Positions 108 through 44,620 of a stretch of 64,000 nt of DNA are shown here, one piece after another (within the stretch, counting starts at the first letter, position 1; the number at the start of each line of letters is the position of its first letter). The translations under genes and the position numbers were made by a program. The notes below the pieces were generated by a model, which was not told where the DNA came from, made no database searches, and saw nothing but the letters and a program-made list of their open reading frames with translations. The stretch spans positions 21,076 through 85,075 of the forward strand of contig JAZQYP010000065.1 in NCBI GenBank assembly GCA_045633625.1, given 5' to 3'. The DNA comes from Eubacteriales bacterium. Lineage in GTDB: Bacteria; Bacillota; Clostridia; Oscillospirales; CAG-272.

Positions 108-135
108 TTTTTTATCCTCAATGTAAAATTTATTC

Positions 136-750: not shown

Positions 751-826
751 ATACACCTCCGGCGTGCAAAGAAAAAATTATATTTCATTATATTATATCA
801 CAAAAGATGCGGCAAGTCTATAGCTT

Positions 827-1534
827 TTAGATAAAAAACAGACTTCCCGCATCAAAAAGTATACTATTTCCGAGGCTTACGCACTCTTTTTCGTGTTTTT
901 TGCAAAATTCTATTATCCTATGGGCATCCGGGTGCATAAAAATATCTCCGCAAAAATAGACCGCGTTATCCTTCTCGCCGCCACATCCGCCTATAAATCC
1001 CGTATCGTAGCCGTCAAGACGGATGCTTCCTGCCGATATAAGCAACACGTCCCCTCCGTGCTCAGAGACCGCCGAGGCAATGCCGCGGTCGGCTGTGACG
1101 ATGGCATTCTCGCTGATCTTGAGGGACGAGCATTTCGTATATCCTTGTCTGACGTTTACAATATTTATATTGCGCTCGCGCGCAAGGGAAACAAGCTCGC
1201 GTGACATTCCTTTTTCATATCCGTATAGAGTATTGCCAAGGAGCAGGGAATTAAACAGGATATCGTTTGGGTATTCGGGCGACGGTGTCTGGTCGGTAAG
1301 GCGAACAGTGTAGCCGAGCGCTTCTATTTTCTCAAAGCTCTCCCTTGCAATTGAAAAATATTCCCCTGTCGTAATACAAATGTCACCAAGAAAAAAGAGA
1401 AGCATATCGGGATGCGCCGATACACCGCGCTGTAAACGCTCATATCTGGGCATGGGTATTGTTTCGAAGCCTCTGTGTGCCAGCTCTTTTCGAGAGTGCT
1501 CGGGAAGCTCACACGAAACGACAACGTATTTCAT
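827..1534 (-). CDS. conserved hypothetical protein
   Basis: The track ORF 827..1546 is trimmed to the ATG at 1534 (GAGG 6 nt upstream). It has coding-like composition and lies on the same strand as its neighbours. I can name no motif. Confidence 0.65.
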   Translation of the reverse strand: MKYVVVSCELPEHSRKELAHRGFETIPMPRYERLQRGVSAHPDMLLFFLGDICITTGEYFSIARESFEKIEALGYTVRLTDQTPSPEYPNDILFNSLLLGNTLYGYEKGMSRELVSLARERNINIVNVRQGYTKCSSLKISENAIVTADRGIASAVSEHGGDVLLISAGSIRLDGYDTGFIGGCGGEKDNAVYFCGDIFMHPDAHRIIEFCKKHEKECVSLGNSILFDAGSLFFI

Positions 1535-1597
1535 AAAAAACCTCATAAAACAAAGAAGACAGACTTATGCCTGTCTTCTTTAGTACAATATTCAAAA

Positions 1598-1783
1598 TTA
1601 AACTCTGGTTACCTTGCCGGAACGAAGGCAGCGAGAACAAACCGCTACGGTCTTGGGTGTACCGTTAACAACTGCTCTTACCTTACGGATGTTGGGCTTC
1701 CAAGTTCTGTTTGTCTTGCGGTGAGAGTGGGAAACGGACTGACCGAAAACAACGCCTTTACCGCAGATACTGCATTTTGCCAT
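1598..1783 (-). CDS. rpmB: 50S ribosomal protein L28
   Basis: 61 aa, MAKCSICGKG...SHSHRKTNRTWKPN, which is the typical L28 sequence and size. Confidence 0.95.
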   Translation of the reverse strand: MAKCSICGKGVVFGQSVSHSHRKTNRTWKPNIRKVRAVVNGTPKTVAVCSRCLRSGKVTRV

Positions 1784-1856
1784 AATGACACCTCCTTATG
1801 TACTTTAGCACATATTTTCATAATTTTTTTAATTCAATATTCATAGAACGGTTAAC

Positions 1857-1885
1857 ATTATACCACAAAGAAAATCAAAATGCAA
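1857..1885 (-). promoter_or_regulatory. sigma-A type promoter for rpmB
   Basis: Minus strand: TTGCAT (1885..1880), a 17-nt spacer, then the extended -10 TGgTATAAT (1865..1857). Confidence 0.45.
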
Positions 1886-1934
1886 TAGTTTTTTTAGAAA
1901 AATAAATAAGAAATTAAAAAAAATTTAAAAATCC

Positions 1935-1963
1935 TTGACATAAGGGAAGAATTGTGGTATAAT
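1935..1963 (+). promoter_or_regulatory. sigma-A type promoter for rpsF-ssb-rpsR
   Basis: TTGACA (1935..1940), a 17-nt spacer, then TGgTATAAT (1955..1963). It is followed by a ~100-nt 5' UTR containing the hairpin ACGGGTCGG...CCGCCCGT (about 1975..2000). Confidence 0.55.
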
Positions 1964-2071
1964 ACCAATTCAGTACGGGTCGGATTTCGTAACCGCCCGT
2001 CTCCTTACCGCTCGTAAATTCTACTTTTATTTAATGCGTGCGGTCTTAATGTCCATAGGGAGGTGTAAAAC

Positions 2072-2476
2072 ATGGAAAAGGTAATCAATTCTTACGAAAG
2101 CCTGTTCATTGTTGACGTTTCAAAGGGTGAGGAAGTCACTGAAGCAGCTGTGAACAAGTTTACGTCCCTCATCGAGGCAAATGCCGAGGTTATCGACGTA
2201 GCAAAGTGGGGCAAGCGCCGTCTTGCATACCCCATCAACGATATGCCCGAGGGCTACTACGTAGTAGTAACCTTCAAGTCTGAGCCTGCATTCCCCGCAG
2301 AGTTCGAGCGTCTTGCAAACATTGACGAAGCAGTTCTTCGTTCGATGGTAATCAGACTCGAGTACGATGCAGCAGAGAAGGCAGCTAAGAAGGCAGCAGA
2401 GGCAGCCGAGAAGGCAGCAGCTGAGGCAGTTGTCGAGGAGACAGCTGTAGCAGAGACCGAAACAACCGAAGAGTAA
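2072..2476 (+). CDS. rpsF: 30S ribosomal protein S6
   Basis: The N-terminal YE..FIV...... and WGKRRLAYPI motifs are present. It has an acidic/Ala-rich C-terminal tail and an AGGGAGG RBS. Confidence 0.95.
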   Translation: MEKVINSYESLFIVDVSKGEEVTEAAVNKFTSLIEANAEVIDVAKWGKRRLAYPINDMPEGYYVVVTFKSEPAFPAEFERLANIDEAVLRSMVIRLEYDAAEKAAKKAAEAAEKAAAEAVVEETAVAETETTEE

Positions 2477-2499
2477 TGTCTTAATGGGAGGGTGCTATA

Positions 2500-2955
2500 A
2501 TGGCAAACTTTAACTTTAACAAGGTAATACTTGGTGGACGTCTTACAGCTGATCCTGAGCTCAAGCAGACGCAGACGGGTGTTGCAGTCGTTTCCTTCAG
2601 CATTGCGGTAAATCGCAGACCCTCAAGGGACGGAGCGCAGCAGACCGACTTCTTCAACGTAACTGCTTGGAGAGGCACAGCGGAGATAGTAACGAAGTAT
2701 TTCAAGAAGGGCTCTTCTATATGCGTCGTTGGAAGCATACAGAACCGTTCTTGGACTGACCAGCAGGGTCAGAAGCGTTACGCTACCGATATTATTGCCG
2801 ATGAGGTAAACTTCGTGGATAGCCGCGGAGAGTCCTCTGCCTCTGATGTACAGGGATATACGCCTGACGCATACAGCACACCCGCATTTTCTTCGACCCC
2901 TTCCTCAGCACCCAATTTTGAGGAAGTCGAATCTGACGACGATCTGCCCTTCTAA
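2500..2955 (+). CDS. ssb: single-stranded DNA-binding protein
   Basis: OB-fold N-terminus (NKVILGGRLTADPELK), a disordered tail, and the canonical acidic tip DDDLPF. Confidence 0.95.
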   Translation: MANFNFNKVILGGRLTADPELKQTQTGVAVVSFSIAVNRRPSRDGAQQTDFFNVTAWRGTAEIVTKYFKKGSSICVVGSIQNRSWTDQQGQKRYATDIIADEVNFVDSRGESSASDVQGYTPDAYSTPAFSSTPSSAPNFEEVESDDDLPF

Positions 2956-2991
2956 GCAGATCAAACACAACAATAACAGGAGGATATTAAA

Positions 2992-3246
2992 ATGGATAGA
3001 GCAGAAAACGCAGTACGCGCACAGCGTCCTATGATGCGTAGAAGAAAGAAAGTTTGCATCTTTTGTGCAGACAAGGTAGATTTCATTGATTACAAGGATT
3101 CTGCAAAGCTTCGCAAGTTCATCAGCGAGCGCGGCAAGATTCTTCCCAGAAGAATTTCCGGTACCTGCGCAAAGCATCAGCGTGAGCTTAACACAGCTAT
3201 CAAGCGTGCAAGACAGGTTGCTTTGCTTCCTTACGTAACCGACTAA
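2992..3246 (+). CDS. rpsR: 30S ribosomal protein S18
   Basis: [20 protein letters not shown] and [21 protein letters not shown] are the S18 signature. The rpsF-ssb-rpsR gene order is classical. Confidence 0.95.
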
Positions 3247-3270
3247 TTAAATATCTATCGGTAAAAAACA

Positions 3271-3298
3271 CGGTGGGCAATGCCCACCGAGTTTTTTT
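3271..3298. terminator. bidirectional rho-independent terminator (rpsR / cdd convergent)
   Basis: CGGTGGG-caatg-CCCACCG hairpin, flanked by an A-run on the left and T7 on the right. Confidence 0.7.
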
Positions 3299-3347
3299 AT
3301 TAAATATTAAGTCGGCGTTCCTGATACGTTCGTGTTTTTTGCTATAA

Positions 3348-3734
3348 TTATTTGTTAAGCCCGAAGCTATGCGGCAAAAGCTCACCGAGTGTGAGAACTT
3401 TTGCCTCTTTTTTGTCGTCCTCAAGAATTATTTTGAAATCGGGGGTGCAAAATTCCGCCATTACCTGACGGCAGATGCCACAGGGAAGGCAGGGTGCGGT
3501 ATCACCAACGACGGCAATAGCAGAGAAATCTCGCTCTCCTGCCGCCACAGCCGCAAAAATAGCCGAGCGCTCGGCGCAGTTTGTCGCTCCAAACGATGCG
3601 TTTTCAATGTTTGCGCCAAGATATACCTTGCCGTCTTTCGTGAGGAGTGCTGCGCCCACCGCAAAATGCGAGTAAGGCGAATACGAGTTTTCTTTTGCTT
3701 TATGTGCTAACTCCAAAAGCTCTTTATCAGTCAT
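3348..3734 (-). CDS. cdd: cytidine deaminase
   Basis: CAER..(zinc His/Cys-Ala-Glu) and PCGICRQ motifs. The track start at 3746 is trimmed to the ATG at 3734, with GGAGAG 4 nt upstream. The gene overlaps the deoB stop by 8 nt. Confidence 0.9.
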   Translation of the reverse strand: MTDKELLELAHKAKENSYSPYSHFAVGAALLTKDGKVYLGANIENASFGATNCAERSAIFAAVAAGERDFSAIAVVGDTAPCLPCGICRQVMAEFCTPDFKIILEDDKKEAKVLTLGELLPHSFGLNK

Positions 3735-4866
3735 TTTTCTCTCCAATTTTAAGATATTCCGAGATTTTTTCTGAAATTATATCAAATCCGTCGACCGTGC
3801 CGAGATTCTCGGGCGTCATACCTTTGCCGTAGACGATAAGCGGCACGTATTCGCGGGTGTGGTCGGTGGACGCGGTAAATGCGGGGTCACAGCCGTGGTC
3901 TGCGGTGATGATAAGCAGATCGTCCTCGCGCATTTTGGGCAAAAACGTGCCAAGCCACGCGTCAAATTCGTTCAGCGCGGCAGTATATCCGTCGACGTCG
4001 CGTCTGTGACCGTAAAGCATATCAAAATCAACAAGATTTATAAATGCAAGACCGCAGAAATCACGTGACACAAGCTCATCAGCCGCCGCCATACCCTCGG
4101 TATTAGAGTGAGTGGGGAGGTGATCGGTAAATCCGCGACCCGCGAAGATGTCGGAGATCTTGCCGACCGCTATCATGTCAAGTCCCGCCGCCTTTACCTT
4201 GTCGCAAAGGGTGTCGCAGGGCGGCTCAAGCGAGAAGTCGCGTCTGTTGCCTGTGCGGACAAATTTGCCGTTCTCGGTAATAAAGGGGCGCGCGATAACA
4301 CGTCCTACGCCGTACTTGCCCGTGAGAAGCCCTCTTGCCTTGCGGCATATCTCATAGAGCTCGTCGAGGGGAACAATCTCCTCGTGCGCGGCAACCTGAA
4401 AAACGCTGTCCGCCGAGGTGTATACTATCACCTTGCCGGACTTTACGTGCTCCTCGCCGTAGTCACGAATGACCGCCGTGCCCGAATACGTCTTGTTGCA
4501 AAGCACACCGCGGCCAATTTCTCGCTCAAATGCCTCTATGAGCTCGGCATCAAAGCCGTTCGGGAAGGTGGGCAGAGGTGAGTCCGATATGAAGCCCGCG
4601 ATCTCCCAGTGACCGATAGTGGTGTCCTTGCCTTGAGATAGCTCGCGAAGGCGCGCAACGGTGGCTCTCGGAGAGTCGGTATTTCCAAGGAAATATAAGC
4701 CGTCTATATTGCCGATGCCAAGGGAGACAAGATTTTTTATATTCAATTTTCCCGATTCCCACAGCGCTTTGAGGGTGTGCGCGCCTACGTCACCGAATTT
4801 TTCGGCATCGGGAGCTTCACCCGCTCCAACACTGTCAAGAACTATAAGAAAAACTCTTTTTTTCAT
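3727..4866 (-). CDS. deoB: phosphopentomutase
   Basis: N-terminus VFLIVLDSVGAGEAPDA, later TADHGCDP, about 390 aa: the alkaline-phosphatase superfamily DeoB signature. Confidence 0.93.
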   Translation of the reverse strand: MKKRVFLIVLDSVGAGEAPDAEKFGDVGAHTLKALWESGKLNIKNLVSLGIGNIDGLYFLGNTDSPRATVARLRELSQGKDTTIGHWEIAGFISDSPLPTFPNGFDAELIEAFEREIGRGVLCNKTYSGTAVIRDYGEEHVKSGKVIVYTSADSVFQVAAHEEIVPLDELYEICRKARGLLTGKYGVGRVIARPFITENGKFVRTGNRRDFSLEPPCDTLCDKVKAAGLDMIAVGKISDIFAGRGFTDHLPTHSNTEGMAAADELVSRDFCGLAFINLVDFDMLYGHRRDVDGYTAALNEFDAWLGTFLPKMREDDLLIITADHGCDPAFTASTDHTREYVPLIVYGKGMTPENLGTVDGFDIISEKISEYLKIGEKND

Positions 4867-4875
4867 TTGAATAAA

Positions 4876-5604
4876 TTATTCCATCGAGATAGCAGTCTCA
4901 AGCGCTATCTCCATCATTTCGCGGAAGGACGTCTGTCTTGCCTCGGAGTCAAGTGCCTCACCCGTTACAAGTGAGTCGGAAATCGTGCAGATCGCAAGCG
5001 CGCGCTTACCGAGACGTGCCGCGTTCATATAGAGCGCCGCCGCCTCCATCTCGACCGCAAGCACACCCATCTTCTGCCAGCCTGCCGTCACGTTCGGGTC
5101 GTCGTTATAGAAAACGTCGCTTGAGAAGAGCGCACCGACGTGGTGGGGAATAGCCTTCTTTTCGGCAATCTCAACCGCTGTGCGAAGAAGAGTGAAATCA
5201 GCCGCGGGAGAGAATGTGCCGCCAAGACGGTACTGCTCGCCGTAAGAGGAATTTGTGCAAGCCGACATACCGAAAACTACGTCGCGCACCTTGACGTTCT
5301 CCTGCATTGAGCCCGCCGAGCCTATGCGGATTATATTTTCAACACCGAAGAATGAGAAAAGCTCATAGCTGTATATGCCTATCGATGGCATACCCATGCC
5401 GCTTGCCATTACCGAGACACGCTTGCCCTTATAAGTGCCCGTGTAGCCCTGAATACCGCGCACGTTGTTGAAAAGTACCGCATTATCAAGGAAATTCTCC
5501 GCCACAAATTTTGCGCGCAGAGGGTCACCCGGCATAAGCACAGTCTTTGCTATGTCCTCGGGCGTCGCTTTTATATGAGGTGTGGGGTATAATTTATCAG
5601 TCAT
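4876..5604 (-). CDS. deoD: purine nucleoside phosphorylase, DeoD type
   Basis: MPGDPLRAKF, GMGMPS and EMEAAALY motifs; 242 aa. Confidence 0.93.
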   Translation of the reverse strand: MTDKLYPTPHIKATPEDIAKTVLMPGDPLRAKFVAENFLDNAVLFNNVRGIQGYTGTYKGKRVSVMASGMGMPSIGIYSYELFSFFGVENIIRIGSAGSMQENVKVRDVVFGMSACTNSSYGEQYRLGGTFSPAADFTLLRTAVEIAEKKAIPHHVGALFSSDVFYNDDPNVTAGWQKMGVLAVEMEAAALYMNAARLGKRALAICTISDSLVTGEALDSEARQTSFREMMEIALETAISME

Positions 5605-6264
5605 TTATTTTTCTCCTATGCTTTCATAAGGAATATGTACGATTGTATGACCGCAATTTAAGCAATCCGTACGCTCTTTGCTGTTCTTGGTGCCGCACAC
5701 AAGGCAACACGAGTGTTGTTTTTCTTCTTTTGTAACTACCAAAAGTTCATTAAACCCAAGAATATGGCATACTATATCCCCCTTAGTGAAAAGGTCAACA
5801 TAGTCGTCGATTTTTCCCTCAGAAGCAACTGCAAATCCTACGTGACTTCTTTGCCCAACAGATTTTGCCTTTATTTTCTTTAACTTGCCATTTGCCAATT
5901 TGACGTCTAATACAATAGTCTGTTTAGGGTGTGGATAAAATTCAGCTCCACCTGTGGTGTATGATCCTATCTCATCAATTATCTCCACAGAAATTATTTC
6001 ACCGCACCAAGATCTGTCGGTTATTAGAGTATGGACTTTGGATATAAAGAAGGGGAGAAGTATTGCTAACACAGAAAAAGCAATGATCGCGGGGGCATTA
6101 TCCCCTATACTTATATCCTTTGCGAGAAGAATGATCGCAAATATTGCTACAATTTCAAGAGTGATAAATGTTATAATTTTTTTTAGAATTTTATTTTTAT
6201 TTATTTTTTGGATATCGTTAGGTAAGGTTATAGTTTTTAATACGTTAGATAAACGATTCGACAT
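5605..6264 (-). CDS. hypothetical membrane protein with C-terminal zinc-ribbon
   Basis: The track ORF 5605..6330 runs into a palindromic repeat, so I trimmed it to the ATG at 6264 with GGAG 7 nt upstream. It has two hydrophobic helices and a C-terminal CxxC-x10-CxxC (CLVCGTKNSKERTDCLNCGH). Its stop abuts the deoD ATG. It is visibly AT-rich. Confidence 0.6.
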   Translation of the reverse strand: MSNRLSNVLKTITLPNDIQKINKNKILKKIITFITLEIVAIFAIILLAKDISIGDNAPAIIAFSVLAILLPFFISKVHTLITDRSWCGEIISVEIIDEIGSYTTGGAEFYPHPKQTIVLDVKLANGKLKKIKAKSVGQRSHVGFAVASEGKIDDYVDLFTKGDIVCHILGFNELLVVTKEEKQHSCCLVCGTKNSKERTDCLNCGHTIVHIPYESIGEK

Positions 6265-6303
6265 AATTTTCTCCAAAATTTTAATTGCGAAGTGTTTTAT
6301 GGC

Positions 6304-6423
6304 TCCCTTGTGTAAAGGGAGCTGTCGCAAAGCGACTGAGGGATTGTTTTTGTGCGAATGTGTTTATTATACAATCCCTCCGTCACGCCTTTTGGGCGCG
6401 CCACCTCCCTTTACACAAGGGAG
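6304..6423. repeat. nested palindromic intergenic element (REP/MITE-like)
   Basis: CTCCCTTGTGTAAAGGGAG (6304..6322) and its exact reverse complement CTCCCTTTACACAAGGGAG (6405..6423) form the outer arms. Each arm is itself a 7-bp/5-nt hairpin. The inner inverted pair is GAGGGATTGT (6338..6347) / ACAATCCCTC (6371..6380). Confidence 0.7.
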
Positions 6424-6464
6424 GCTGAAGCTGGTGAGGTCTGCTGTTTGTGGGAATAGATGAG

Positions 6465-7046
6465 TCAGTCCTTCTTTTCTCCTTCCATATAATAAGACGC
6501 TTCCATATCTGCTACGCAGAGCGAGAAGGCGAGAGGGAACATCTCAAGCGCGCGTCCAACCTGATTTGCATCCTCAGGACCCGAAAATCCCATATGGTAA
6601 CGGATAGCAAACGCCTCGTCGCGTGTGAGCTTCATATATCCCGAAATAATGTAGACCGACTTCTCACCGTGGCCGTAAGGAAGATTATCTTCAATTGTGT
6701 AATAAGGAACACTCTCCCAGATGCCGTTTTTCTTGACGTTTCGCATCTCTGTCTTATAGAAATTTACCTTGCACAAGTCGTGAAGAAGCGCAACTATAGC
6801 AACACTTTCATCAGAGAAGGAAAAACCGTACTTGTCGCGGAAGCGAGGACGCTTGACAAAATCGTCAAGGCACTCGTAGACGTTGAGGCTATGCTCAACA
6901 AGACCGCCCTCATACGCGCCGTGGTATCTCGTCGATGCGGGTGCTGTGAAAAAGTCGGATTTCATAATAAATTCAAGCAATTTATCAGCGCCCTCGCGCT
7001 TGATGCAGGCGTTGTATATTTCAATAAATTTTTCTCTGTTAGTCAT
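6465..7046 (-). CDS. HD-domain phosphohydrolase
   Basis: RYHGAYEGGLVEHSLNV ... LLHDLCK form the H..HD motif. The track start at 7061 is trimmed to the ATG at 7046 with a GAGGTG RBS. Confidence 0.8.
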   Translation of the reverse strand: MTNREKFIEIYNACIKREGADKLLEFIMKSDFFTAPASTRYHGAYEGGLVEHSLNVYECLDDFVKRPRFRDKYGFSFSDESVAIVALLHDLCKVNFYKTEMRNVKKNGIWESVPYYTIEDNLPYGHGEKSVYIISGYMKLTRDEAFAIRYHMGFSGPEDANQVGRALEMFPLAFSLCVADMEASYYMEGEKKD

Positions 7047-7120
7047 AGTCGCACCTCTCATATATTATTATCAATTATATTCTATCATATTATTTTTCGT
7101 TTTTCAATATTTTTCTTATC

Positions 7121-7149
7121 AAAAAAAGCCGACGGCAAATGCCGTCGGC
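7121..7149 (-). terminator. rho-independent terminator after the M15-like gene
   Basis: GCCGACGGC-aaat-GCCGTCGGC hairpin. The A7 run on the plus strand reads as a U-tract on the minus strand. Confidence 0.7.
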
Positions 7150-7154
7150 AATAA

Positions 7155-8093
7155 TTATTTTCTTACTGTTACGATAAATCCGCCCGCGTTGTCGCCACTG
7201 ATGGTCGTTCCGTTTTTAGAGGATGTCTTGATGACTGTCTCTCCCTCTGCATTAGCAGTTACGTAATAAATCTCATACGCTACGTTGCCTGCAGTCGCTT
7301 TTAACGGATTGTCCTTTGTATACGAGCGCACCTTTCCGACGTATTCCTCAAGGCAAAGATTGTTCTCGGTCATATACGTCGCGTGAGCCGTTCCAACGTA
7401 TCTGAAGGCGTTGTCAAAGTCGGAAACACCCGTGGTGCTTGATTTTGCCTCTGGATATCTGCTTATAAAGCCGTACTTATGCGCGTTTTTGTATATCCAA
7501 TCGTAGGCATTGTCCTGGCTTATCGATGCCGCCGAGCCACCGTAGGTTATCTCGAAAAGATTTCCCGTGTGAAAGTCGCTGTGACCGCCCTTTGTGGACG
7601 TGCCGAGCGCGTTCTGCGCGTCAAGGCTTCTGTATGCCGACCAGATATAAAGCTTTGTCGCCGCCGCTTTGTTCTCTGATTGCGCGTAGAAGTCCTCAAC
7701 CATCTTATTGAGTGCGGTGAGTGCCGCACGGGATGCCCTCATATCGGCATTTCTGAGTGTATAAAGAGGTGTTCCGTCAGCCGAGGGGATCTCGTTTGCC
7801 ATAGAAACAAGCTTTGACTCTGTGTTTACAGTAAAATCAAACGCCGCTGTGCCCTTGTTTATGACAAGCAGCTCGCCCTTCTTGGTGTCCTCGTATGTAA
7901 GTGTAAACTCACCCTTGCCGCCCGTGCCGCCGCCTATGACGTTCGGGGTATTGTCGGAGTGGGTTACCGATAACGTAATAAGGAGAGCTACCGCAACGAG
8001 AATTATGAGCGCCGCCGTTGCATATATCGATAAAACCGTAAGTCTTTTTATTTTGTTATCACCATTTCCGATATATTCACGTAAGCTCTTCAT
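7155..8093 (-). CDS. membrane-anchored VanY/M15B-like D,D-carboxypeptidase family protein (metal-ligand motifs look degenerate)
   Basis: N-terminal TM helix. The SAYRSLDAQ, WIYKNAHKYGFISRYP and FRYVG family blocks are present. The canonical SxHxxGxAxD and ExxH blocks are not intact (GHSDFHTGNLFE; FDNAF). Confidence 0.7.
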   Translation of the reverse strand: MKSLREYIGNGDNKIKRLTVLSIYATAALIILVAVALLITLSVTHSDNTPNVIGGGTGGKGEFTLTYEDTKKGELLVINKGTAAFDFTVNTESKLVSMANEIPSADGTPLYTLRNADMRASRAALTALNKMVEDFYAQSENKAAATKLYIWSAYRSLDAQNALGTSTKGGHSDFHTGNLFEITYGGSAASISQDNAYDWIYKNAHKYGFISRYPEAKSSTTGVSDFDNAFRYVGTAHATYMTENNLCLEEYVGKVRSYTKDNPLKATAGNVAYEIYYVTANAEGETVIKTSSKNGTTISGDNAGGFIVTVRK

Positions 8094-8136
8094 CGTTACT
8101 TAAGCTCTCCTTATCATATTTAGTTTTTAATTTTAA

Positions 8137-10278
8137 TTATTTTGCGTCCTTGATGGAGAAGTCCATACGGCCCTTCTTGTCAAGACCGATGTACTTAACT
8201 CTTACGCTGTCGCCAACGTTAATGCCTGCATCCTCAACCTTGTTGATTCTGCGGTCGCAGATCTTCGAGATGTGGACCATAGCCTCCTTGCCGGGAGCAT
8301 ACTCAACGAAGCATCCAACGTCCTCGTTAGGCTTGTCCTTGCTTGCGAGTATCTTAACTACTGTTGCGGGGTAGATGCAACCAACCTCGGGCTCGAAGCA
8401 GATAGCGTCGATCATAGCCTTAGCCGCTGCTGCGCTCTCACCGTTAACTGCCGCGATGCAGATAACGCCGTCATCGTTGATGTCGACCTTAGCGCCCGAC
8501 TCTGCAACGATCTTCTGAATTACAGATCCACCCTTACCGATAACCTCACGGATCTTGTCGGGATCGATCTTGAAGCTTGTCATCTTAGGAGCGTACTTCG
8601 AAACCTCAGCTCTGGGTGCCTCGATAGCCTTGAGAATTACCTCGTCGATGATATAGTCACGTCCCTCGTGAGTCTGCGCGAGAGCCGCCTTGATGATCTC
8701 GGGAGTAAGTCCGTCAACTTTAAGGTCCATCTGGATGGATGTGATACCCTTGTGAGTACCTGCTACCTTGAAGTCCATATCTCCGTAGAAGTCCTCAAGT
8801 CCCTGAATATCAAGCATGATATCCCAGCTTCCGTCCTCAGCGGTGATAAGACCGCAAGAAATACCTGCAACGGGAGCCTTTATCGGAACACCTGCGTCCA
8901 TAAGAGCAAGGGTAGATCCGCAAACGGAGCCCTGAGACGTCGAACCGTTAGAGGAAACTACGTCGGAAACGAGTCTGATTGCATAGGGGAACTCCTCGGG
9001 AGAGGGAAGTACGGGAATGAGCGAACGCTCTGCAAGTGCACCGTGACCGATCTCACGACGACCGGGGCTTCTTGTAGACTTAGCCTCACCGGTCGAGAAG
9101 CCGGGCATATTGTAGTGGTGCATATATCTCTTCTCGGTCTCGTTGTCGATACCGTCGAGCATCTGTGCCTCGGAGAGCATACCGAGAGTTGCAACTGTGA
9201 GGACCTGTGTCTGACCTCTTGTAAAGAGGCCCGAACCGTGAGTTCTGGGAAGAACGCCAACCTCAGAGCCAAGAGCTCTTATCTGGTTCATAGCACGTCC
9301 GTCAACACGCTTCTTGTCAACAAGGAGCCAACGGCGAACGATCTTCTTCTGGATCTTGTAGATGAGCTCCTCCATAATGGAAGCGATCTCGGGATACTCC
9401 TCCGAGAAGTGCTCGATGATTGCGTCCTTGATGGGCTCAACTCTCTCGTCACGGATGTTCTTGTCATCTGTGTCAAGTGCCTTCATCATATCAGCCTCGC
9501 AGAATGCGAAAACTGCGTCAAACATATCGTGATCGAGCTCGCAAGAGGGGTAATCGAACTTGGGCTTGCCGATCTCGTCGATTATAGCGTTAATGAAGCC
9601 GAGAAGGTCCTTGATCTCCTCGTGAGCCTTCATAATAGCCTCGTACATTGTGTCGTCGTCAACCTCGTTAGCGCCTGCCTCGATCATAACGACCTTCTCC
9701 ATAGAAGCCGCAACTGTGAGCTGAAGATCGCTCTTCTTCTGCTCCTCAGCGTTGGGGTTTACTACGAGCTTGCCGTCAACAAGACCCATAAATACGCCAC
9801 CGATAGGTCCGTTCCACGGAATATCGGAGATTGCGAGGGCGCACGATGCACCGATCATAGCGGTGATCTCGGGCGAGCAGTCGGGATCAACGGACATAAC
9901 TGTAAGCGTAAGAGCTACGTCGTTACGAAGATCCTTGGGGAAGAGGGGACGGATAGGTCTGTCGATAACTCTCGAGGTAAGAACAGCCTTCTCAGAGGGC
10001 TTGCCCTCACGCTTGAGGTAACCGCCGGGGATCTTACCTGCCGCATACATTCTCTCGTCGTAGTCAACGGAGAGGGGAAGGAAGTCGATACCGTCACGGG
10101 GCTTTGCGGATGCCGTAGCACAGCAAAGGATTACCGTGTCGCCGTAGCGAACGAGAACCGAGCCGTTTGCAAGACCTGCAACCTTGCCACTTTCGATAAC
10201 AAGGGGACGGCCTGCGAAGGTGTAATTGAACACCTTGTAGTTTTTGAAATTCATCTTTTCACTTTTGGTGATTGCCAT
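8137..10278 (-). CDS. pnp: polyribonucleotide nucleotidyltransferase (PNPase)
   Basis: Two RNase PH domains plus KH and S1 domains. The track start at 10326 is trimmed to the ATG at 10278 with a GGAGG RBS (MAITKSEK...). Confidence 0.97.
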   Translation of the reverse strand: MAITKSEKMNFKNYKVFNYTFAGRPLVIESGKVAGLANGSVLVRYGDTVILCCATASAKPRDGIDFLPLSVDYDERMYAAGKIPGGYLKREGKPSEKAVLTSRVIDRPIRPLFPKDLRNDVALTLTVMSVDPDCSPEITAMIGASCALAISDIPWNGPIGGVFMGLVDGKLVVNPNAEEQKKSDLQLTVAASMEKVVMIEAGANEVDDDTMYEAIMKAHEEIKDLLGFINAIIDEIGKPKFDYPSCELDHDMFDAVFAFCEADMMKALDTDDKNIRDERVEPIKDAIIEHFSEEYPEIASIMEELIYKIQKKIVRRWLLVDKKRVDGRAMNQIRALGSEVGVLPRTHGSGLFTRGQTQVLTVATLGMLSEAQMLDGIDNETEKRYMHHYNMPGFSTGEAKSTRSPGRREIGHGALAERSLIPVLPSPEEFPYAIRLVSDVVSSNGSTSQGSVCGSTLALMDAGVPIKAPVAGISCGLITAEDGSWDIMLDIQGLEDFYGDMDFKVAGTHKGITSIQMDLKVDGLTPEIIKAALAQTHEGRDYIIDEVILKAIEAPRAEVSKYAPKMTSFKIDPDKIREVIGKGGSVIQKIVAESGAKVDINDDGVICIAAVNGESAAAAKAMIDAICFEPEVGCIYPATVVKILASKDKPNEDVGCFVEYAPGKEAMVHISKICDRRINKVEDAGINVGDSVRVKYIGLDKKGRMDFSIKDAK

Positions 10279-10399
10279 TTTAATTCCTCCGTAAATTTTT
10301 ATTTTCGTTTCACGAAGGTTTAGCACTTAATTACAGCCCTCAGCGTAAGGGTCATAATTAACTGCTAATCCGTTCGTGAAGAGAACACTTGTTGGTTTA

Positions 10400-10445
10400 C
10401 AAAAATATGGAGTGAGGAGTAAGCATAAACTCAACTCTTCACTCC
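10400..10445 (-). terminator. rpsO terminator / rpsO-pnp attenuator hairpin
   Basis: Minus strand: GGAGTGAAGAGT-13 nt-ACTCCTCACTCC, followed by ATATTTTT. It lies between the rpsO stop and the pnp start. Confidence 0.6.
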
Positions 10446-10463
10446 ATCGTTTTGTATCAGAAA

Positions 10464-10730
10464 TTACTTTCTGATGCCGAGTCTTGCGATGATCGCACGG
10501 TAACGCTCGATATCTGTCTTCTGGAGGTAGTTAAGAAGGTTTCTTCTGTGACCTACCATCTTAAGAAGACCGCGGCGGCTGTGGTGATCCTTGTGGTTAG
10601 CCTTGAGGTGCTCGTTGAGCGTGTTGATTCTGTGTGTGAGAATCGCGATCTGTACCTCGGGCGAGCCTGTGTCACCTTCGTGAGTAGCATACTCAGCAAT
10701 GATTGCCTGCTTTTCGTCCTTAAGCATCAT
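10464..10730 (-). CDS. rpsO: 30S ribosomal protein S15
   Basis: [29 protein letters not shown] signature. The track GTG at 10742 is trimmed to the ATG at 10730 (AGGTG 9 nt upstream). Confidence 0.95.
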
Positions 10731-10840
10731 AATTTTTTTCACCTTTCTAAAAAATATTTATCAAAAAACTCAGCGATCGGCGGGTGAAATGTCGACTTGC
10801 GACCTTTGTCCGAAGACCGAGTTATCGATACGCAACGGGT

Positions 10841-10869
10841 ATTATACCATATATAATCATATTTGTAAA
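10841..10869 (-). promoter_or_regulatory. sigma-A type promoter for rpsO
   Basis: Minus strand: TTTACA (10869..10864), a 17-nt spacer, then TGgTATAAT (10849..10841). It leaves a ~100-nt 5' UTR. Confidence 0.5.
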
Positions 10870-10901
10870 GAGTTTTCATAAAATTTTTTACAAAAAAATC
10901 T

Positions 10902-11288
10902 CTATTTATCCGCTGTATGAGGTCTTTTTAGGAATCGTACGCATTTTTTCAGTGAGAAAAGACCCGCGACGGTAAGCATAGCACCAAATATCTTTCGCAG
11001 TATACTCTCGTCGATAACCCCCGAGAGATATGAGCCGATAAGCGCGCCCGCGACACCGCTTATTATCATAATTCCAAGTGCAAAGGTGAATATTTTTCTG
11101 CGGAGTAGGTGAACGGGCAAGGAAGCGCCCGCCGAGAAGAGAAAAAAGAGAAGATTTACTCCCTGTGCCTCAAGCTGAGGAGTGCCTTCAAAGAGTGTCA
11201 GATAAACCAAAAACAGACCGCCGCCCCCAACTCCGAGCCCCGAAAGAAGAGAGATGATAAATGCGGCCATCACCGAAAGCAGTACCAT
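10902..11288 (-). CDS. TauE/SafE (TSUP) family transporter, half-size C-terminal-type unit
   Basis: 128 aa, four hydrophobic segments, G-rich motif LSGLGVGGGGLF. Its start lies 1 nt after the stop of the upstream half. Confidence 0.75.
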   Translation of the reverse strand: MVLLSVMAAFIISLLSGLGVGGGGLFLVYLTLFEGTPQLEAQGVNLLFFLFSAGASLPVHLLRRKIFTFALGIMIISGVAGALIGSYLSGVIDESILRKIFGAMLTVAGLFSLKKCVRFLKRPHTADK

Positions 11289-41027: not shown

Positions 41028-42830
41028 TTATTCTGTTGGTTTTACATAGTCATAAACTATTGTATATGTACCATTGGCTGTATTCGATCCTGCTCTAAAA
41101 TCCCAATCCATTGACTTTTCTATTGTATTCCATTCTTCTTCGGTTCCTTCGTAATTTATTACAGATAGATTCCAACAAGCGCCAAAAGCGTCTAACTTTA
41201 TTCTTCTAAGAGTCTTGGGAAGAGTTATACTCGCTAAATTGTCACAATGCTGAAAAGCTTCGGAATTTATTGTTTCAGTTCCGCTTTCTATAATGATGCT
41301 AGTGAGACTGTCACAACTTGAAAAAGCTTGTGAGTATATTTCTTTTATACTAGAAGGAATAACAATTTCTTTTAGATTATCACAATCAAAGAATAATTCC
41401 TTGCTGATGTCAGTATCACCATATGGAATTCTTATGTATTCGAGAGAGTCACAATTATAAAATGCACCCGGTCCAAGATATGTTATTTTATCAGGCATAT
41501 CAACAGTATTCAGATTTATACATCCCTTGAATGCATATGATTCTATTTCTCTTATGTCATTATGTAAAGTAATGCTTGTTATATTTATGCAATCTTTGAA
41601 AGCGGACGAACCTATTGTTGTTACAGGTTTGCCTTCATATGTGTAAGGAATTACAACCTCAGTTGCTGTTCCTGTATAGTCTGTTATACTGTATTCGGTG
41701 TTTTTTATAAGAGTGAAAATAAGACCTTCAGTGTAATATTCAGGATCTCTATTATCACATCCTGAGCATAAACCGTTAATATAATTATGGTCAAGTGCCG
41801 AACCTTCGTCAGTTATCGTGTCCGTTTCATCACATTCTGTTCTGTCACATTCAGCAGTCTTCGTTCCGTCTTCGGTACAGGATGCATCGTTATTTGATAT
41901 ATAATTTGTAAAGCTGTGACCAAGTGCCGAACCTTCGTCAGCCACAGTATCAGTTTCGTTACATTCGTCTCTGTCACACGTTGCGGTCTTTGTACCGTCG
42001 AAACAGGATGCATCGTTATTTGATACATAATCTGTGAAGATATGACCAGCAGAATTTTCATCAGTTACAGTGTTTGTTTCATCACATCCATCTCTGTCGC
42101 ATTCAGCGGTCTTTGTTCCGTCTTCTGCGCAAGTTGCATCATTGTTCGACACGTAGTTTGTGAAGCTGTGACCGCTTCCCGTATTTTCGTCGGTTACAGT
42201 GTCTGTTTCATCACATTCGTTTCTGTCGCACGTTGCAGTCTTTGTGCCGTCGAGACATGTTGCATCGTTATTTGATACATAGTCTGCGAAGATATGACCA
42301 GCAGAATTTTCATCAGTTATAGTGTCTGTTTCATCACATCCAGCTCTGTCGCATTCAGCGGTTTTTGTCCCGTCTTCCGTGCAGGTTGCATCGTTATTCG
42401 ACACATAATTTGTGAAGTTATGACCATTAGCGCAAGGATCTACAGGAACAGCGGGAGTACTACCGCCTCCTCCGCCAGCGGGAGCACCTCCTCCGCCTCC
42501 TCCGGGAACGATCGGAGCTTCAGTTTCGGTTTCAGTCTCGGTTTCAGTCTCGGTTTCAGTCACGGTTTCAGTTTCAGTTTCGGTTTCAGTTTCGGTTTCA
42601 GTCTCAGTTTCAGTCTCAGTTTCCGTTTGAGTCTCGGTTTCGGGTTCAACGGTTTCAGTTACCGATACCTCAACTTCTTCTGTTTCACTTTCGCTCGTCT
42701 CACTTTCGGGGGCGACTGTCGCTTTTTCGGTATCATTCGACTCAACGTCAATATCAGTGTTTTCATTACACGCGATAAGGGCAACCGTGAGAACAAGGCA
42801 TACTGCAATCAAAGCGATAAATTTTTTCAT
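41028..42830 (-). CDS. lipoprotein with (TE)n acidic repeat, Gly-rich spacer, His-Cys3 mini-domain repeats and C-terminal BspA-type leucine-rich repeats
   Basis: Lipobox LIAC (MKKFIALIAVCLVLTVALIAC). The (TE)n run is followed by GGGGGGAPAGGGGG and five and a half ~41-43-aa repeats, GH.F..Y.SNNDA.C..DGTKTA.CDR..C.ET.T. The C-terminal repeats follow the pattern I..I...AF..C..L..I.IP. Confidence 0.88.
   Translation of the reverse strand: MKKFIALIAVCLVLTVALIACNENTDIDVESNDTEKATVAPESETSESETEEVEVSVTETVEPETETQTETETETETETETETETETETVTETETETETETETEAPIVPGGGGGGAPAGGGGGSTPAVPVDPCANGHNFTNYVSNNDATCTEDGTKTAECDRAGCDETDTITDENSAGHIFADYVSNNDATCLDGTKTATCDRNECDETDTVTDENTGSGHSFTNYVSNNDATCAEDGTKTAECDRDGCDETNTVTDENSAGHIFTDYVSNNDASCFDGTKTATCDRDECNETDTVADEGSALGHSFTNYISNNDASCTEDGTKTAECDRTECDETDTITDEGSALDHNYINGLCSGCDNRDPEYYTEGLIFTLIKNTEYSITDYTGTATEVVIPYTYEGKPVTTIGSSAFKDCINITSITLHNDIREIESYAFKGCINLNTVDMPDKITYLGPGAFYNCDSLEYIRIPYGDTDISKELFFDCDNLKEIVIPSSIKEIYSQAFSSCDSLTSIIIESGTETINSEAFQHCDNLASITLPKTLRRIKLDAFGACWNLSVINYEGTEEEWNTIEKSMDWDFRAGSNTANGTYTIVYDYVKPTE
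41751..42425 (-). repeat. tandem coding repeats (His-Cys3 units; 252-bp two-unit higher-order period)
   Basis: The protein repeats alternate two subtypes. The nucleotide period is visible because the antisense track ORFs at 42042 and 42294 begin with the same 16 residues, exactly 252 nt apart. Confidence 0.85.
42519..42641 (-). repeat. 6-bp (Thr-Glu)n coding microsatellite-like repeat
   Basis: GAAACy/GAGACT units encode ETETQ(TE)10TV(TE)6. Confidence 0.85.
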
Positions 42831-42847
42831 GATTCCTTTCTCCTTTG

Positions 42848-42880
42848 AAAATAAAAAAGTGCGCAGCCGAAGCTACGCAC
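42848..42880 (-). terminator. intrinsic terminator inside the 5' leader of the LRR lipoprotein gene
   Basis: Minus strand: GUGCGUAGC-UUCG-GCUGCGCAC, a 9-bp stem with a UUCG tetraloop (42880..42859). It is followed by UUUUUUAUUUU (42858..42848), then the RBS AAAGGAGAAAGG and the ATG at 42830. Confidence 0.7.
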
Positions 42881-42903
42881 GAAAAAATGGTAGCTCCAAT
42901 TGC

Positions 42904-43015
42904 TGCGACACAAATGACTTTTATACCGCTTAAATAAGCGTACGAAAAGGGAGCGTACATTTTTATCTAAAACAAAAATGTACACTTATTCAACGGTATA
43001 TTCACTTGTGTCGCA
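42904..43015 (-). promoter_or_regulatory. structured 5' leader RNA (candidate riboswitch/attenuator aptamer-like domain), class unknown
   Basis: Nested helices on the minus strand. P1 pairs 43015..43003 with 42916..42904 (13 bp). P2 pairs 43000..42994 with 42928..42922 (7 bp). P3 pairs 42990..42983 with 42940..42933 (8 bp). The apical hairpin pairs 42982..42974 with 42964..42956. The element begins at the predicted TSS. Confidence 0.45.
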
Positions 43016-43020
43016 AGTCT

Positions 43021-43049
43021 ATTATATCACAAAAAAATTTTTTTGTAAA
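43021..43049 (-). promoter_or_regulatory. promoter of the LRR lipoprotein leader
   Basis: Minus strand: TTTACA (43049..43044), a 17-nt spacer, then TGaTATAAT (43029..43021). Confidence 0.55.
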
Positions 43050-43178
43050 TAGTTTTTTCTTTATATATGTATCATTGATTGAATGCAAAAAAATACAGAA
43101 AAAATATAAATCAATATATTTATAAAATTTAAGTACTATTTTATAAACATAAAAGCCTTACTCCTACGGCATTTTTTG

Positions 43179-43207
43179 TTTACAAAACGTAAAAAGTGTG
43201 TTATAAT
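43179..43207 (+). promoter_or_regulatory. promoter of the 43236 gene
   Basis: TTTACA (43179..43184), a 17-nt spacer, then TGtTATAAT (43199..43207). Confidence 0.5.
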
Positions 43208-43235
43208 AAAATAAACTTACGAAAGGAGAGCCGCG

Positions 43236-43817
43236 ATGATAATTTGGTACATAATTTTACTTCTTGCCGTACTGTCGCTTATATTTTGGCAATATATCCG
43301 CGCGGCGATCTCAAGGATCATTACCTACCGCGAGGTAAAGAAGATATGTCAGGCGGGTAAGATAGATATTAAGCTGATGAATGGCTCCTTTGCCTTCGCA
43401 AAGAACAAAAACGATGGCTTTGATTTTATCCTAAAGATCGGGAACACCGTTCTGCCTGTCAAATTTTATTCGGCGCTCTCAACACGCGATACGGCATACA
43501 TAGACCCGCGCGGACGTGTTTGTGTCAGAGGAATATATCGCAAGCCGCTCTCGCGTAGCGGCAGAGCCGAGGGTCAGGCGGTTAAGCGCTTTTATAGACT
43601 CCCGTCTATGAAGATCCGTAAGGATATCATTTCGAAGGAATACAAGATCTATCCCGTATTTCTCAACGAGCCACCCTTCAAGTCGGTAAAGCTCGTTGAC
43701 AAGGCGGGTAAGACCACCGACATATTTGACACAAGCGGCGTCGTTGCAGGCTGCAGATGGCTTGAAAAGGAAACGTTTTTGTCGCTTATAATGGCTAGCG
43801 TTAAGAAAAAACAATAA
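43236..43817 (+). CDS. hypothetical protein with N-terminal TM helix
   Basis: 193 aa with an AAAGGAGAG RBS and a hydrophobic N-terminus (IIWYIILLLAVLSLIFW). I recognised no motif. Confidence 0.6.
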   Translation: MIIWYIILLLAVLSLIFWQYIRAAISRIITYREVKKICQAGKIDIKLMNGSFAFAKNKNDGFDFILKIGNTVLPVKFYSALSTRDTAYIDPRGRVCVRGIYRKPLSRSGRAEGQAVKRFYRLPSMKIRKDIISKEYKIYPVFLNEPPFKSVKLVDKAGKTTDIFDTSGVVAGCRWLEKETFLSLIMASVKKKQ

Positions 43818-43823
43818 AATTCA

Positions 43824-43850
43824 AGCGGTGAGCATCTGCTCACCGCTTTT
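43824..43850. terminator. terminator between convergent genes
   Basis: AGCGGTGAGC-atct-GCTCACCGCT plus TTT. Confidence 0.7.
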
Positions 43851-43864
43851 ATAATAACGATAGG

Positions 43865-44620
43865 CTATATTTCATTTTCGATATGAGACTGATACAGTCG
43901 AAAAAACGAGCTGTAGCTTTCGTAACCGACACTCATTGCCGCGACTGTACGTGGTGTGCCTTCCTTTATCAGCTTACACGCAAGAGCAAGCTTTTTTTGC
44001 AAAATATATTGCTTAGGTGAAATATTCATTTTTTGCTCAAACAAATGGCTAAATGAGGATTTTGAGCGTGCTGTGTGCCTTGCAAGGTCGTCAAGCAGGA
44101 TCTTTTCTCCTAAATGAAGGTCAATATATTGCAATGCTTTTTGTAAAAATTCGTCAGTCTCGGCTATTTCGGGAAGCTTGCTATCATGCAAAAGATCGTA
44201 AAAGGTTTCAATGATCAAGCTGTTTACAAGCGGAGCGTAAAATTGCTTATTCTCCATTTTGCAACGCTCTTTGATCTTTTCAAGATTTTGCGAGAATCCG
44301 ATCATAGCTCCACGGGTGATCCTCAAAAATTCTTCCTTAAGCACGTCGGGTATTTCATCAATGCCAAATTGTACTGTAATTCTACGGTATATACACTTCT
44401 CGTTTGTGTTTACCGAATGGTAAAAAAGCGGGGGGATAATGATGCATTGGTTTTTTATCAAGCGGTAATTTTGGCCTTCGAGCACAACGGTAATATCGCC
44501 GTCTATCACGCCTATCATTTCGTATTGCGAATGACAATGCTTTTCCCATAATATAGGCTGATCTATCTCGCTTTCTATGTATTCAAGATTAAATGCATCG
44601 GTTTTGAAGTCATACGTCAT
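43865..44620 (-). CDS. AraC family transcriptional regulator
   Basis: N-terminal cupin-like domain plus a C-terminal double HTH (LDDLARHTARSKSSFSHLFEQKMNISPKQYI..KL..A). It is divergent from the 44749 operon. Confidence 0.88.
   Translation of the reverse strand: MTYDFKTDAFNLEYIESEIDQPILWEKHCHSQYEMIGVIDGDITVVLEGQNYRLIKNQCIIIPPLFYHSVNTNEKCIYRRITVQFGIDEIPDVLKEEFLRITRGAMIGFSQNLEKIKERCKMENKQFYAPLVNSLIIETFYDLLHDSKLPEIAETDEFLQKALQYIDLHLGEKILLDDLARHTARSKSSFSHLFEQKMNISPKQYILQKKLALACKLIKEGTPRTVAAMSVGYESYSSFFRLYQSHIENEI

Follow-up and report, generated by a model that had tools for sequence, protein, structure and literature searches.

Several described RNA leaders choose between termination and read-through by mutually exclusive pairings. 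In the PyrR-controlled pyr leaders of Bacillus subtilis, hairpins are layered so that sequestration of the antiterminator 5' strand frees an intrinsic terminator, and several copies occur per genome. In pseudoknot-type transcriptional OFF riboswitches (preQ1-I, SAM-II/V, fluoride, ZTP and cyclic di-GMP (c-di-GMP)-II), a 3' tail that base-pairs with a loop inside or at the apex of the upstream fold competes with the terminator platform. In antisense attenuation and immunity RNAs (the pT181/pIP501 countertranscripts and the c4 RNA of phages P1/P7), which reside on phages and mobile elements and use a YUNR-like recognition loop, an element-specific, covarying RNA-RNA helix decides termination. 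Here we describe a leader that shares these traits in its predicted pairings and its occurrence. It precedes a lipoprotein gene on the minus strand of a 64,000-nt stretch of contig JAZQYP010000065.1 from a Eubacteriales bacterium (the window; coordinates are positions in the window unless a contig is named). The leader belongs to a widespread structured RNA family that gut Clostridia and phages use before many unrelated accessory genes. It is probably a cis-acting, multi-state conditional transcription attenuator.

A portable cassette in gut Clostridia and phages

An earlier note, made by a model from the letters of the window alone, had called the leader an orphan. We found five further loci in the same genome and hundreds elsewhere, with compensatory changes, including loci on phage contigs. 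The own assembly comprises 2.05 Mb in 77 contigs and is 94.9% complete; BLAST against it returned three more copies with 69–74% identity to the window leader. All four share one layout: promoter, UGCNACACAA start, nested helices, linker, GUGCG..CGCAC terminator, ribosome binding site (RBS) and open reading frame (ORF). A covariance model built from these four copies (model R1, not to be confused with segment R1 below) recovered six full copies in the own genome. The window copy scores 166 bits by construction, being a seed, and independent copies in other genomes score 45–138 bits. The model matched in 35 of 36 congeners, with up to 14 copies per genome, some of them in tandem, and in 9 of 24 other families of the same order. 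A degenerate DNA pattern that fixes part of the closing helix P1 occurred on at least 120 genome contigs and at least 108 IMG/VR viral contigs; when 100 genome loci and 100 viral loci from this pattern search were checked with the model, 98 of the former and nearly all of the latter were confirmed. The genome records among the matches listed carry titles such as Oscillospiraceae, Acutalibacteraceae, Ruminococcaceae, Ruminococcus and Dysosmobacter, among others; the sampled guts were those of humans, ruminants, rabbits and horses, and three of the records are isolates. Candidate cultured carriers include Ruminococcus sp. JL13D9 (NZ_CP162392, with a copy near 361.1 kb; L077), Lachnospiraceae bacterium AM48-27BH (L103) and Clostridia bacterium UC5.1-1D2 (L055).

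Each copy is a fixed portable cassette that combines a sigma-70 extended -10 promoter, the leader, the terminator, an RBS and an unrelated cargo gene. Promoter statistics were collected from 139 non-redundant leaders with upstream sequence. The -10 hexamer matched at least five of six consensus positions in 123 of them, the TG extension was present in 129, the spacer was 17 nt long in 120, and the distance from the -10 hexamer to the start of the model was exactly 5 nt in 127. In 111 of 140 leaders, the terminator is immediately followed by a Shine-Dalgarno (SD) sequence and an ORF. Pfam has no match for most cargo proteins. Among 106 searched, BspA-type leucine-rich repeat (LRR) proteins were found 10 times and DUF4839 five times, while Listeria-Bacteroides repeat proteins, ABC ATPases, XRE regulators, DUF6809 and zinc ribbons were found three times each. 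A lipobox was present in 25 of 111 cargo proteins. The window copy has all the features of the family: the extended -10 promoter 5 nt upstream, P1 with UGCNACACAA/UUGUGUNGCA, the A-run and pyrimidine tract, the RCAA linker, the GGAG..U5 switch strand, the GUGCG..CGCAC terminator and the RBS directly after it.

One viral contig (L164; IMGVR_UViG_3300045988_044268, 1–11021) is a true phage region that encodes a helicase, MazG, NrdD/NrdG (anaerobic ribonucleotide reductase), an exonuclease and an RNA-polymerase-like gene (phrog_4291). Its leader, at 7882–8057, precedes phrog_29396, a gene of unknown function that follows the leader in many other viral contigs too. Tandem arrays consist of two to four full promoter-leader-terminator cassettes about 280–650 bp apart (L036 on G035:C48, 295–1384; G023:C27, 8376–10140; G049:C8, 61293–61667). 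In the L036 array, three cassettes are trailed only by an SD and an AUG-UAG start-stop, and copies 2 and 4 have an identical linker code. In one own-genome copy (L009; G000:C19:7546-7709, minus strand), neither an RBS nor an ORF can be recognised in the roughly 100 nt past the terminator; this copy may be a stand-alone or decaying cassette. Degenerate or rearranged copies lie on viral contigs (L193, 2822–2952; L186, 4313–4455; L209, 4548–4767); some lack the 3' half of the terminator, and at one locus two copies overlap on opposite strands. G+C-rich palindromic blocks, e.g. tgtaggggcg...cgcccctaca, lie directly upstream of two cassettes (L004 on G000:C12, about 1775–1850, minus strand; L002 on G000:C53, about 1300–1360). 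Upstream of the -35 element, too, sequence is common to both cassettes, which suggests that they were duplicated as larger units.

Covarying helices and alternative pairings

The promoter, the nested helices and the terminator of the window copy all lie on the minus strand where the earlier note had placed them. The sigma-70-type promoter (43021–43049) consists of TTTACA (43049–43044), a 17-nt spacer, TG (43029–43028, in TGaTATAAT) and TATAAT (43026–43021), matching 11 of 12 consensus positions in addition to the TG extension, and the transcription start site (TSS) is predicted at about G43014. The 5' end of the transcript would open with the 5' strand of P1, UGCGACACAAGUGA (43002–43015), which pairs with UCAUUUGUGUCGCA (42904–42917). 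The closing helix that the earlier note had proposed is thus present, but it is 14 bp long (43015–43002 with 42917–42904) and not 13; P1 measures 12–14 bp across the family. P1 encloses the anticipated 7-bp helix P2, UAUACCG (42994–43000) with CGGUAUA (42922–42928), and the 8-bp helix P3, AAUAAGUG (42983–42990) with CGCUUAUU (42940–42933). P1, P2 and P3 were each identified by folding and covariation. The rod is capped by an A/U-rich apical hairpin, P4, whose 5' strand we call R1 (UACAUUUUU, 42974–42982; placed by folding and cognate-partner ranking). GUAC occurs twice on the 3' side of P4, and this duplication accounts for the "two competing hairpins" noted earlier in the apical region. The first GUAC copy belongs to R2 (AAAAAUGUACGCUCC, 42950–42964), which consists of an A-run, GUAC and GCUCC and can pair with R1 or with the linker. 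The second lies in the extended 3' strand of P3, GUACGCUUAUU (42933–42943), and enables P3 to lengthen once R2 is released. Between them, CUUUUC (42944–42949) is the remainder of the unpaired pyrimidine tract after P4. The U-tract is conserved across the family, P4 together with CUUUUC scored terminator-like in a terminator search of the window copy, and the tract may be a pause site.

A 22-nt linker separates the rod from the terminator in the window copy. Its unpaired part, GCAAUU (42898–42903), contains the RCAA that is 96–99% conserved in the family. The rest is the switch strand L23, GGAGCUACCAUUUUUU (42882–42897), which has two candidate partners: R2, forming an anti-antiterminator, or the 5' half of the terminator, forming an antiterminator. 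The terminator itself, GUGCGUAGC-UUCG-GCUGCGCAC (42859–42880), has 9 pairs, 6 of them G-C, and a computed energy of -15.7 kcal/mol. The U-tract U6AU4 (42848–42858), recognised by sequence and by the terminator search, follows, so that 42880–42848 has the G+C-rich hairpin directly before a U-tract that defines an intrinsic terminator. The 185-nt leader folds with a minimum free energy (MFE) of -69.1 kcal/mol, versus -38.4 ± 4.0 for dinucleotide shuffles. This is far beyond chance, as z = -7.7 and none of 200 shuffles was as stable.

The four helices covary across the family. In 102 genome leaders, 92.2% of cells form standard pairs (versus 73.8% when shuffled), double, compensatory changes occur at 32 of 40 pairs, and pairing drops to 30–51% when partners are slid by 1–3 columns. 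P2 and P3 show compensatory changes at every pair; from copy to copy the interior helices have entirely different sequences and yet stay paired. P1 position 4 is occupied by several pair types (GC 56, UA 20, CG 15, AU 8). In an unbiased search for relatives, the conserved part of P1 also changed with compensation, e.g. UGCCAAACAA with UUGUUUGGCG and UACCACGCAA with UUGCGUGGUA. The conserved unpaired nucleotides are RCAA after P1 and UUUGGU before the A-run in the apical loop; UUUGGU resembles the YUNR loops of antisense RNAs.

To examine the alternative pairings, 113 leaders less than 80% identical were split into R1, R2 (A-run, variable stretch, GCUCC), the linker L and the terminator halves T5 and T3. 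The duplex energy of each segment with its own (cognate) partner was then compared with that obtained with partners from other leaders (permuted). Both positive controls behaved as expected: P1 gave -17.2 cognate versus -12.2 kcal/mol permuted (z = -20.6), and the terminator -15.8 versus -10.5 kcal/mol (z = -21.9). The cognate advantage of R2:L was almost as large (-15.5 versus -10.2 kcal/mol, z = -16.1), and the antiterminator L:T5 also showed one (-12.5 versus -9.2 kcal/mol, z = -13.0). The negative controls R2:T3 (-5.3 versus -5.4 kcal/mol, z = +0.2) and L:P1a (-3.4 versus -3.4 kcal/mol, z = -0.9) showed none. From the two advantages we conclude that the linker has two covarying partners: the 5' half of the terminator, forming the antiterminator, and R2, forming an anti-antiterminator of about 15 bp. 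The second pairing is absent from the earlier note; the first is the one it had drawn between GGAGCUAC and the 5' strand and loop of the terminator. Linker:T5 is an alternative helix that uses one terminator strand and covaries in homologues, as is typical of attenuators, and it supports the note's picture of a promoter-proximal structured leader with a terminator/antiterminator choice. The first four positions beside the boundary of the A-run and U-run are paired in 88/76/77/72% of cases (shuffled, 52/53/60/55%), with several pair types each. In the window copy, R2:L23 amounts to -12.3 kcal/mol. The cognate partner of R1 ranked within the top 10% in 64% of leaders. Pairing of the P1 5' strand with the terminator 5' strand (P1a:T5) was tried and rejected, the cognate and permuted energies being -6.3 and -6.2 kcal/mol (z = -0.5).

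The six own-genome copies fall into two code groups, with cross-pairing within each group, and show no sign of enforced orthogonality of codes. A long class of leaders (about 215 nt; L272–L291, from congeners) keeps the R2:linker complementarity. Its R2 A-run lies in the loop of a 7-bp hairpin, GAAUUUG/CAAAUUC, on an arm of a three-way junction. This display makes a fold-back of the linker onto R2 plausible in the long class. These leaders also have an extra small hairpin, AGGGUA-ACUA-UACCCU, followed by U5-6, and their sequence is very highly conserved within the genus.

Computed energies place the alternatives close together. Across the family the rod amounts to -44.9 ± 5.1 kcal/mol, and the antiterminator gains -13.7 ± 2.6 versus -14.8 ± 1.8 kcal/mol for the terminator; a structure in which the terminator is forced lies only 1.6 ± 2.0 kcal/mol above the MFE. 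Antiterminator and terminator are thus nearly isoenergetic, and the outcomes are poised. Release of R2 from R1 costs 5.8 ± 2.6 kcal/mol across the family and 3.7 kcal/mol in the window copy. It is cheap because P3 re-pairs with the second GUAC copy: the second GUAC(GC) block lets P3 lengthen, and the top of the rod becomes a large loop that displays R2. The state with rod, R2:L and terminator would lie 10.8 ± 4.8 kcal/mol below the state with rod and antiterminator, any pseudoknot penalty being ignored. The other alternative pairing of the earlier note, P1 3' strand with terminator 3' strand, stood in part: the complementarity is conserved (about -10.3 kcal/mol), whereas covariation is very slight (z = -3.9). 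It is relevant only on opening of P1. The P1 3' strand then extends the antiterminator, merging both pairings of the note, and the merged structure beats the terminator by 4.4 ± 3.3 kcal/mol (1.8 with shuffled P1b). The extended antiterminator of the window copy with P1 open reaches -26.6 kcal/mol.

Downstream of the window leader lie the RBS GGAG (42843–42840) and the start codon ATG (42830–42828), together spanning 42828–42843 on the minus strand. The cargo gene (41028–42830, minus strand) encodes a 600-aa lipoprotein with BspA-type leucine-rich repeats (LRR_5, E = 3.5e-57) and a lipobox, LIAC, at its N-terminus. The neighbours of the cassette are ordinary chromosomal genes for a class IV aminotransferase, an AraC regulator and an old yellow enzyme (OYE) reductase. 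A second near-consensus extended -10 promoter (43179–43207, plus strand) diverges from the leader promoter and points toward a 193-aa ORF (43236–43817, plus strand) that has no Pfam match. Just upstream of this divergent promoter pair, a strong terminator of 11 pairs (43823–43848, minus strand) ends the AraC-family regulator gene (43865–44620).

A proposed conditional attenuator and its rivals

These pairings suggest how the leader could work. Transcription would start at the first base pair of the long rod P1-P2-P3-P4. The switch strand would be the 16–20-nt linker after the rod, which reads GGAGC, a variable "code" and U5-6. If the linker paired with the 5' half and loop of the terminator, the resulting antiterminator would allow read-through into the gene. 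If it paired instead over about 15 bp with the A-run/GUAC/GCUCC of R2 at the top of the rod, this anti-antiterminator would leave the terminator free, and transcription would stop 18 nt before the start codon. R1 would mask R2 within P4, so that R1 and the linker compete for R2, and the duplicated GUAC would make release of R2 cheap by letting P3 slide. The U5-6 run (then CG), which lies between linker and terminator and in the loop of the antiterminator, is a probable pause that would set the window for the decision. Since the promoters are near consensus and the cargo is accessory, the resting state would probably be OFF; a signal would then favour R1:R2 or otherwise free the linker. The analysis shows the family, the fixed promoter and RBS geometry, the covariation of the helices and alternative pairings, and the near-equal energies; conditional termination, a linker-R2 helix formed in cis and a default OFF state are inferred. 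R1 and the linker compete for R2 in this scheme, and we think that the trigger tips this balance, either as a factor or as a kinetic parameter.

Several points weigh against such an attenuator. Termination, read-through and the TSS are predictions. When only secondary structure is considered, the antiterminator forms first and read-through is predicted; just 25% of leaders have the terminator in their MFE structure. For the linker-R2 helix to form in cis, a short-class leader would have to make a pseudoknot that spans a rod of about 34 bp, with only about 6 nt of linker to do so. Because the linker exits at the base of the rod and R2 lies at its top, the rod would have to bend sharply at its A-rich internal loops. 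With the rod fully opened, the anti-antiterminator comes out 20.7 kcal/mol above the MFE and was rejected as a free-standing state. Alignments from the covariance model are fitted to it, and A3 and A4 show an invariant P1 partly by construction, since the collecting pattern fixes part of this helix. The sequences form subfamilies, so that independent compensatory events are fewer than sequences. Finally, no effector was identified.

Searches for known regulators gave the following. Rfam 15 (4227 models), run on both strands of 42000–44000 at E <= 10, had no match near a gathering score, in line with the earlier statement that no known riboswitch consensus is present. The best match, mir-5014, scored 25 bits versus a gathering score of 101 and is explained by a generic long hairpin; the remaining matches are noise. 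The region contains no T-box (RF00230) match and no T-box sequence or specifier loop; no Rfam match to a PyrR binding site was found there either, and the cargo genes are not pyrimidine genes. The earlier note had mentioned second messengers. The c-di-GMP-I/-II riboswitches (RF01051, RF01786) were not found in 42000–44000 or in the whole genome, the latter being a weak negative as the RF01051 control genomes were silent. A GGDEF domain (PF00990) was not found in the own genome, which is 94.9% complete; the control detected PF00990 in 8 of 14 reference genomes. As the genome has no detected GGDEF domain, c-di-GMP is unlikely as the trigger. In the same assembly, CsrA and Hfq were not found, NusG is encoded by a single gene with no LoaP-type paralogue, and ANTAR was not found in a search whose control was silent. 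A leader peptide was considered and rejected: no start codon is conserved; an AUG/GUG/UUG frequently follows the GGAG of the linker, but at too short a distance, and the window copy has none. A genomic trans partner for the conserved 5' strand was likewise rejected, as there are no meaningful extra copies of TTGTGTNGCA or of the linker motif and the extra matches are chance matches in coding sequence. No description of the family appeared in the full-text literature searched; the large candidate-RNA catalogues PMC8040213 and PMC10690425, not compared at the sequence level, may contain it.

Other explanations start from the same observations. The leader could be a genuine riboswitch, with an aptamer made up of the rod, the apical loop and the linker pseudoknot; once bound, a small molecule or ion would stabilise either the linker-R2 helix (OFF) or P4 (ON). 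We regard this as unlikely. The layout is that of pseudoknot-type transcriptional riboswitches, copies are multiple and sometimes tandem, the unpaired RCAA and UUUGGU are conserved, the balance of antiterminator and terminator is poised, and the family is found in phage genomes, where some second-messenger riboswitches also occur. However, conservation lies almost wholly in strands with alternative partners and not in junctions, and the nearly fully paired rod offers few candidate pocket nucleotides. P1 is far too stable for ligand dependence; a 14-bp helix within a rod of about -45 kcal/mol also speaks against the "classic OFF switch" through the closing helix that the earlier note had envisaged. 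In about 240 instances the "aptamer" never occurred with another expression platform (only degenerate copies were seen, none with a translational platform), the cargo has no common metabolic theme, and the missing GGDEF domain makes c-di-GMP an unlikely ligand. The steric problem of the cis pseudoknot would vanish if the leader acted in trans, R2 of a terminated, end-protected leader of about 165 nt pairing with the linker of nascent cassettes of the same or like code and forcing termination. Repression would then be autogenous and dosage-dependent, and the entry of a phage or mobile element into a naive cell would set off a burst of expression. Near-consensus extended -10 promoters and stable 5' and 3' hairpins would suit an abundant small RNA; the R2:linker code is variable and covarying, a YUNR-like loop motif is present, the family occurs in a phage replication/nucleotide-metabolism module, and the own-genome copies cross-pair within their two code groups. 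Yet R2 is mostly masked by R1 in the short class, codes are not orthogonal within the own genome and can be shared by tandem copies, and a single-copy chromosomal cargo gains little from dosage sensing, so that action in trans appears quite improbable. We give equally little credence to the extension of this reading in which each cassette carries its own key and lock, the terminated leader being an abundant sense RNA whose R2 loop acts on like-coded cassettes; the module would then be a self-addressed dosage or "entry" switch. On arrival in a naive cell, phage and mobile genes would fire briefly, the expression of chromosomal copies would be kept at a fixed level, and shared codes would mark cross-regulated groups.

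A constitutive cassette that senses nothing is a similarly slim prospect. The 5' rod would shield the mRNA from 5' exonucleases, while a balanced terminator would scale down a very strong promoter and insulate the gene. A fixed attenuator could do without antiterminator and anti-antiterminator, but the covariation of both is as strong as that of the structural helices, and the duplicated GUAC (helix sliding) and the isoenergetic antiterminator and terminator would be left unexplained. What speaks for this possibility is the start of the rod at +1, the geometry of known 5' stabilisers in Firmicutes, together with the re-use before unrelated cargo, the absence of any effector found, and a few degenerate copies without terminator parts. 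Least probable by far is a selfish repeated palindrome without function at the RNA level, resembling a miniature inverted-repeat transposable element (MITE) or a repetitive extragenic palindrome (REP); the earlier note had named a palindrome repeated at unrelated loci as the finding that would speak against a switch. The leader is indeed multi-copy and lies at many unrelated loci and in mobile DNA, and its conserved ends TGCNACACAA / TTGTGTNGCA resemble terminal inverted repeats. MITE/REP elements occur in either orientation, have no fixed relation to a promoter or ORF and conserve only their terminal repeats. The leader has a single orientation, a fixed 5-nt gap after the promoter, and an RBS and ORF directly past the terminator; its interiors differ completely in sequence and stay paired by compensation, covariation reaches outside the palindrome (linker with terminator), and the own genome has no copies inside genes or in random orientation. 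Taken together, the evidence favours the cis-acting conditional attenuator.

Relation to known attenuation systems

If this attenuator operates as proposed, uncultured gut and rumen Oscillospirales and their phages share a plug-in regulatory module that is absent from the catalogues searched. In each community member it would control dozens of genes for surface, membrane and small proteins, among them BspA-type LRR lipoproteins with a probable role in adhesion. Identification of the trigger would expose an undescribed regulon and signal in a dominant group of gut bacteria, and would also provide a transcription switch that is natural and portable and whose pairing "code" can be programmed.

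Two further systems invite comparison. T-box leaders are also multi-copy Firmicutes leaders with a long 5' stem and a terminator/antiterminator choice, but the window leader lacks a T-box sequence, a specifier loop and an RF00230 match, and the cargo genes are unrelated to amino-acid metabolism. The PR'-tR' late control region of phage Lambda (6S RNA), on which the antiterminator Q acts, likewise combines a strong constitutive promoter, a short structured transcript and a strong gating terminator, and shares the use by phages. In contrast, the covarying alternative pairings of the leader argue for an RNA switch and not for an antiterminator bound to DNA or RNA polymerase, and no association with a Q-like gene was seen.

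The leader also departs from the systems to which it is most similar. Unlike the pyr leaders, it has no PyrR binding-loop motif or Rfam PyrR match and no pyrimidine genes as cargo. Its anti-antiterminator is a long-range helix across the rod and not a local hairpin, the masking of R2 by R1 adds a fourth layer, and the promoter is part of the conserved unit. Unlike the pseudoknot OFF riboswitches, it has no visible ligand pocket, no conserved junction core and no model match; its tail-loop helix is about 15 bp long with a variable, covarying code, and its closing helix measures 12–14 bp. Unlike the antisense attenuation and immunity RNAs, it carries both partners on the same sense transcript, with no antisense promoter seen in the leader and no Rfam c4 match. 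The unusual design is a chain of strands with two partners each: R1, R2, the linker, the 5' half of the terminator, its 3' half and the P1 3' strand. Also unusual are the inclusion of the promoter in the unit, the four layers of alternative pairing with a variable code, and the spread over chromosomes, mobile elements and phages. On their membership tests the leader family lies outside all the named families; the device is of a known kind, and the family itself is uncatalogued. By analogy, its logic is closest to that of the PyrR-type three-layer attenuators and the pseudoknot OFF riboswitches, with a flavour of antisense-RNA attenuation.

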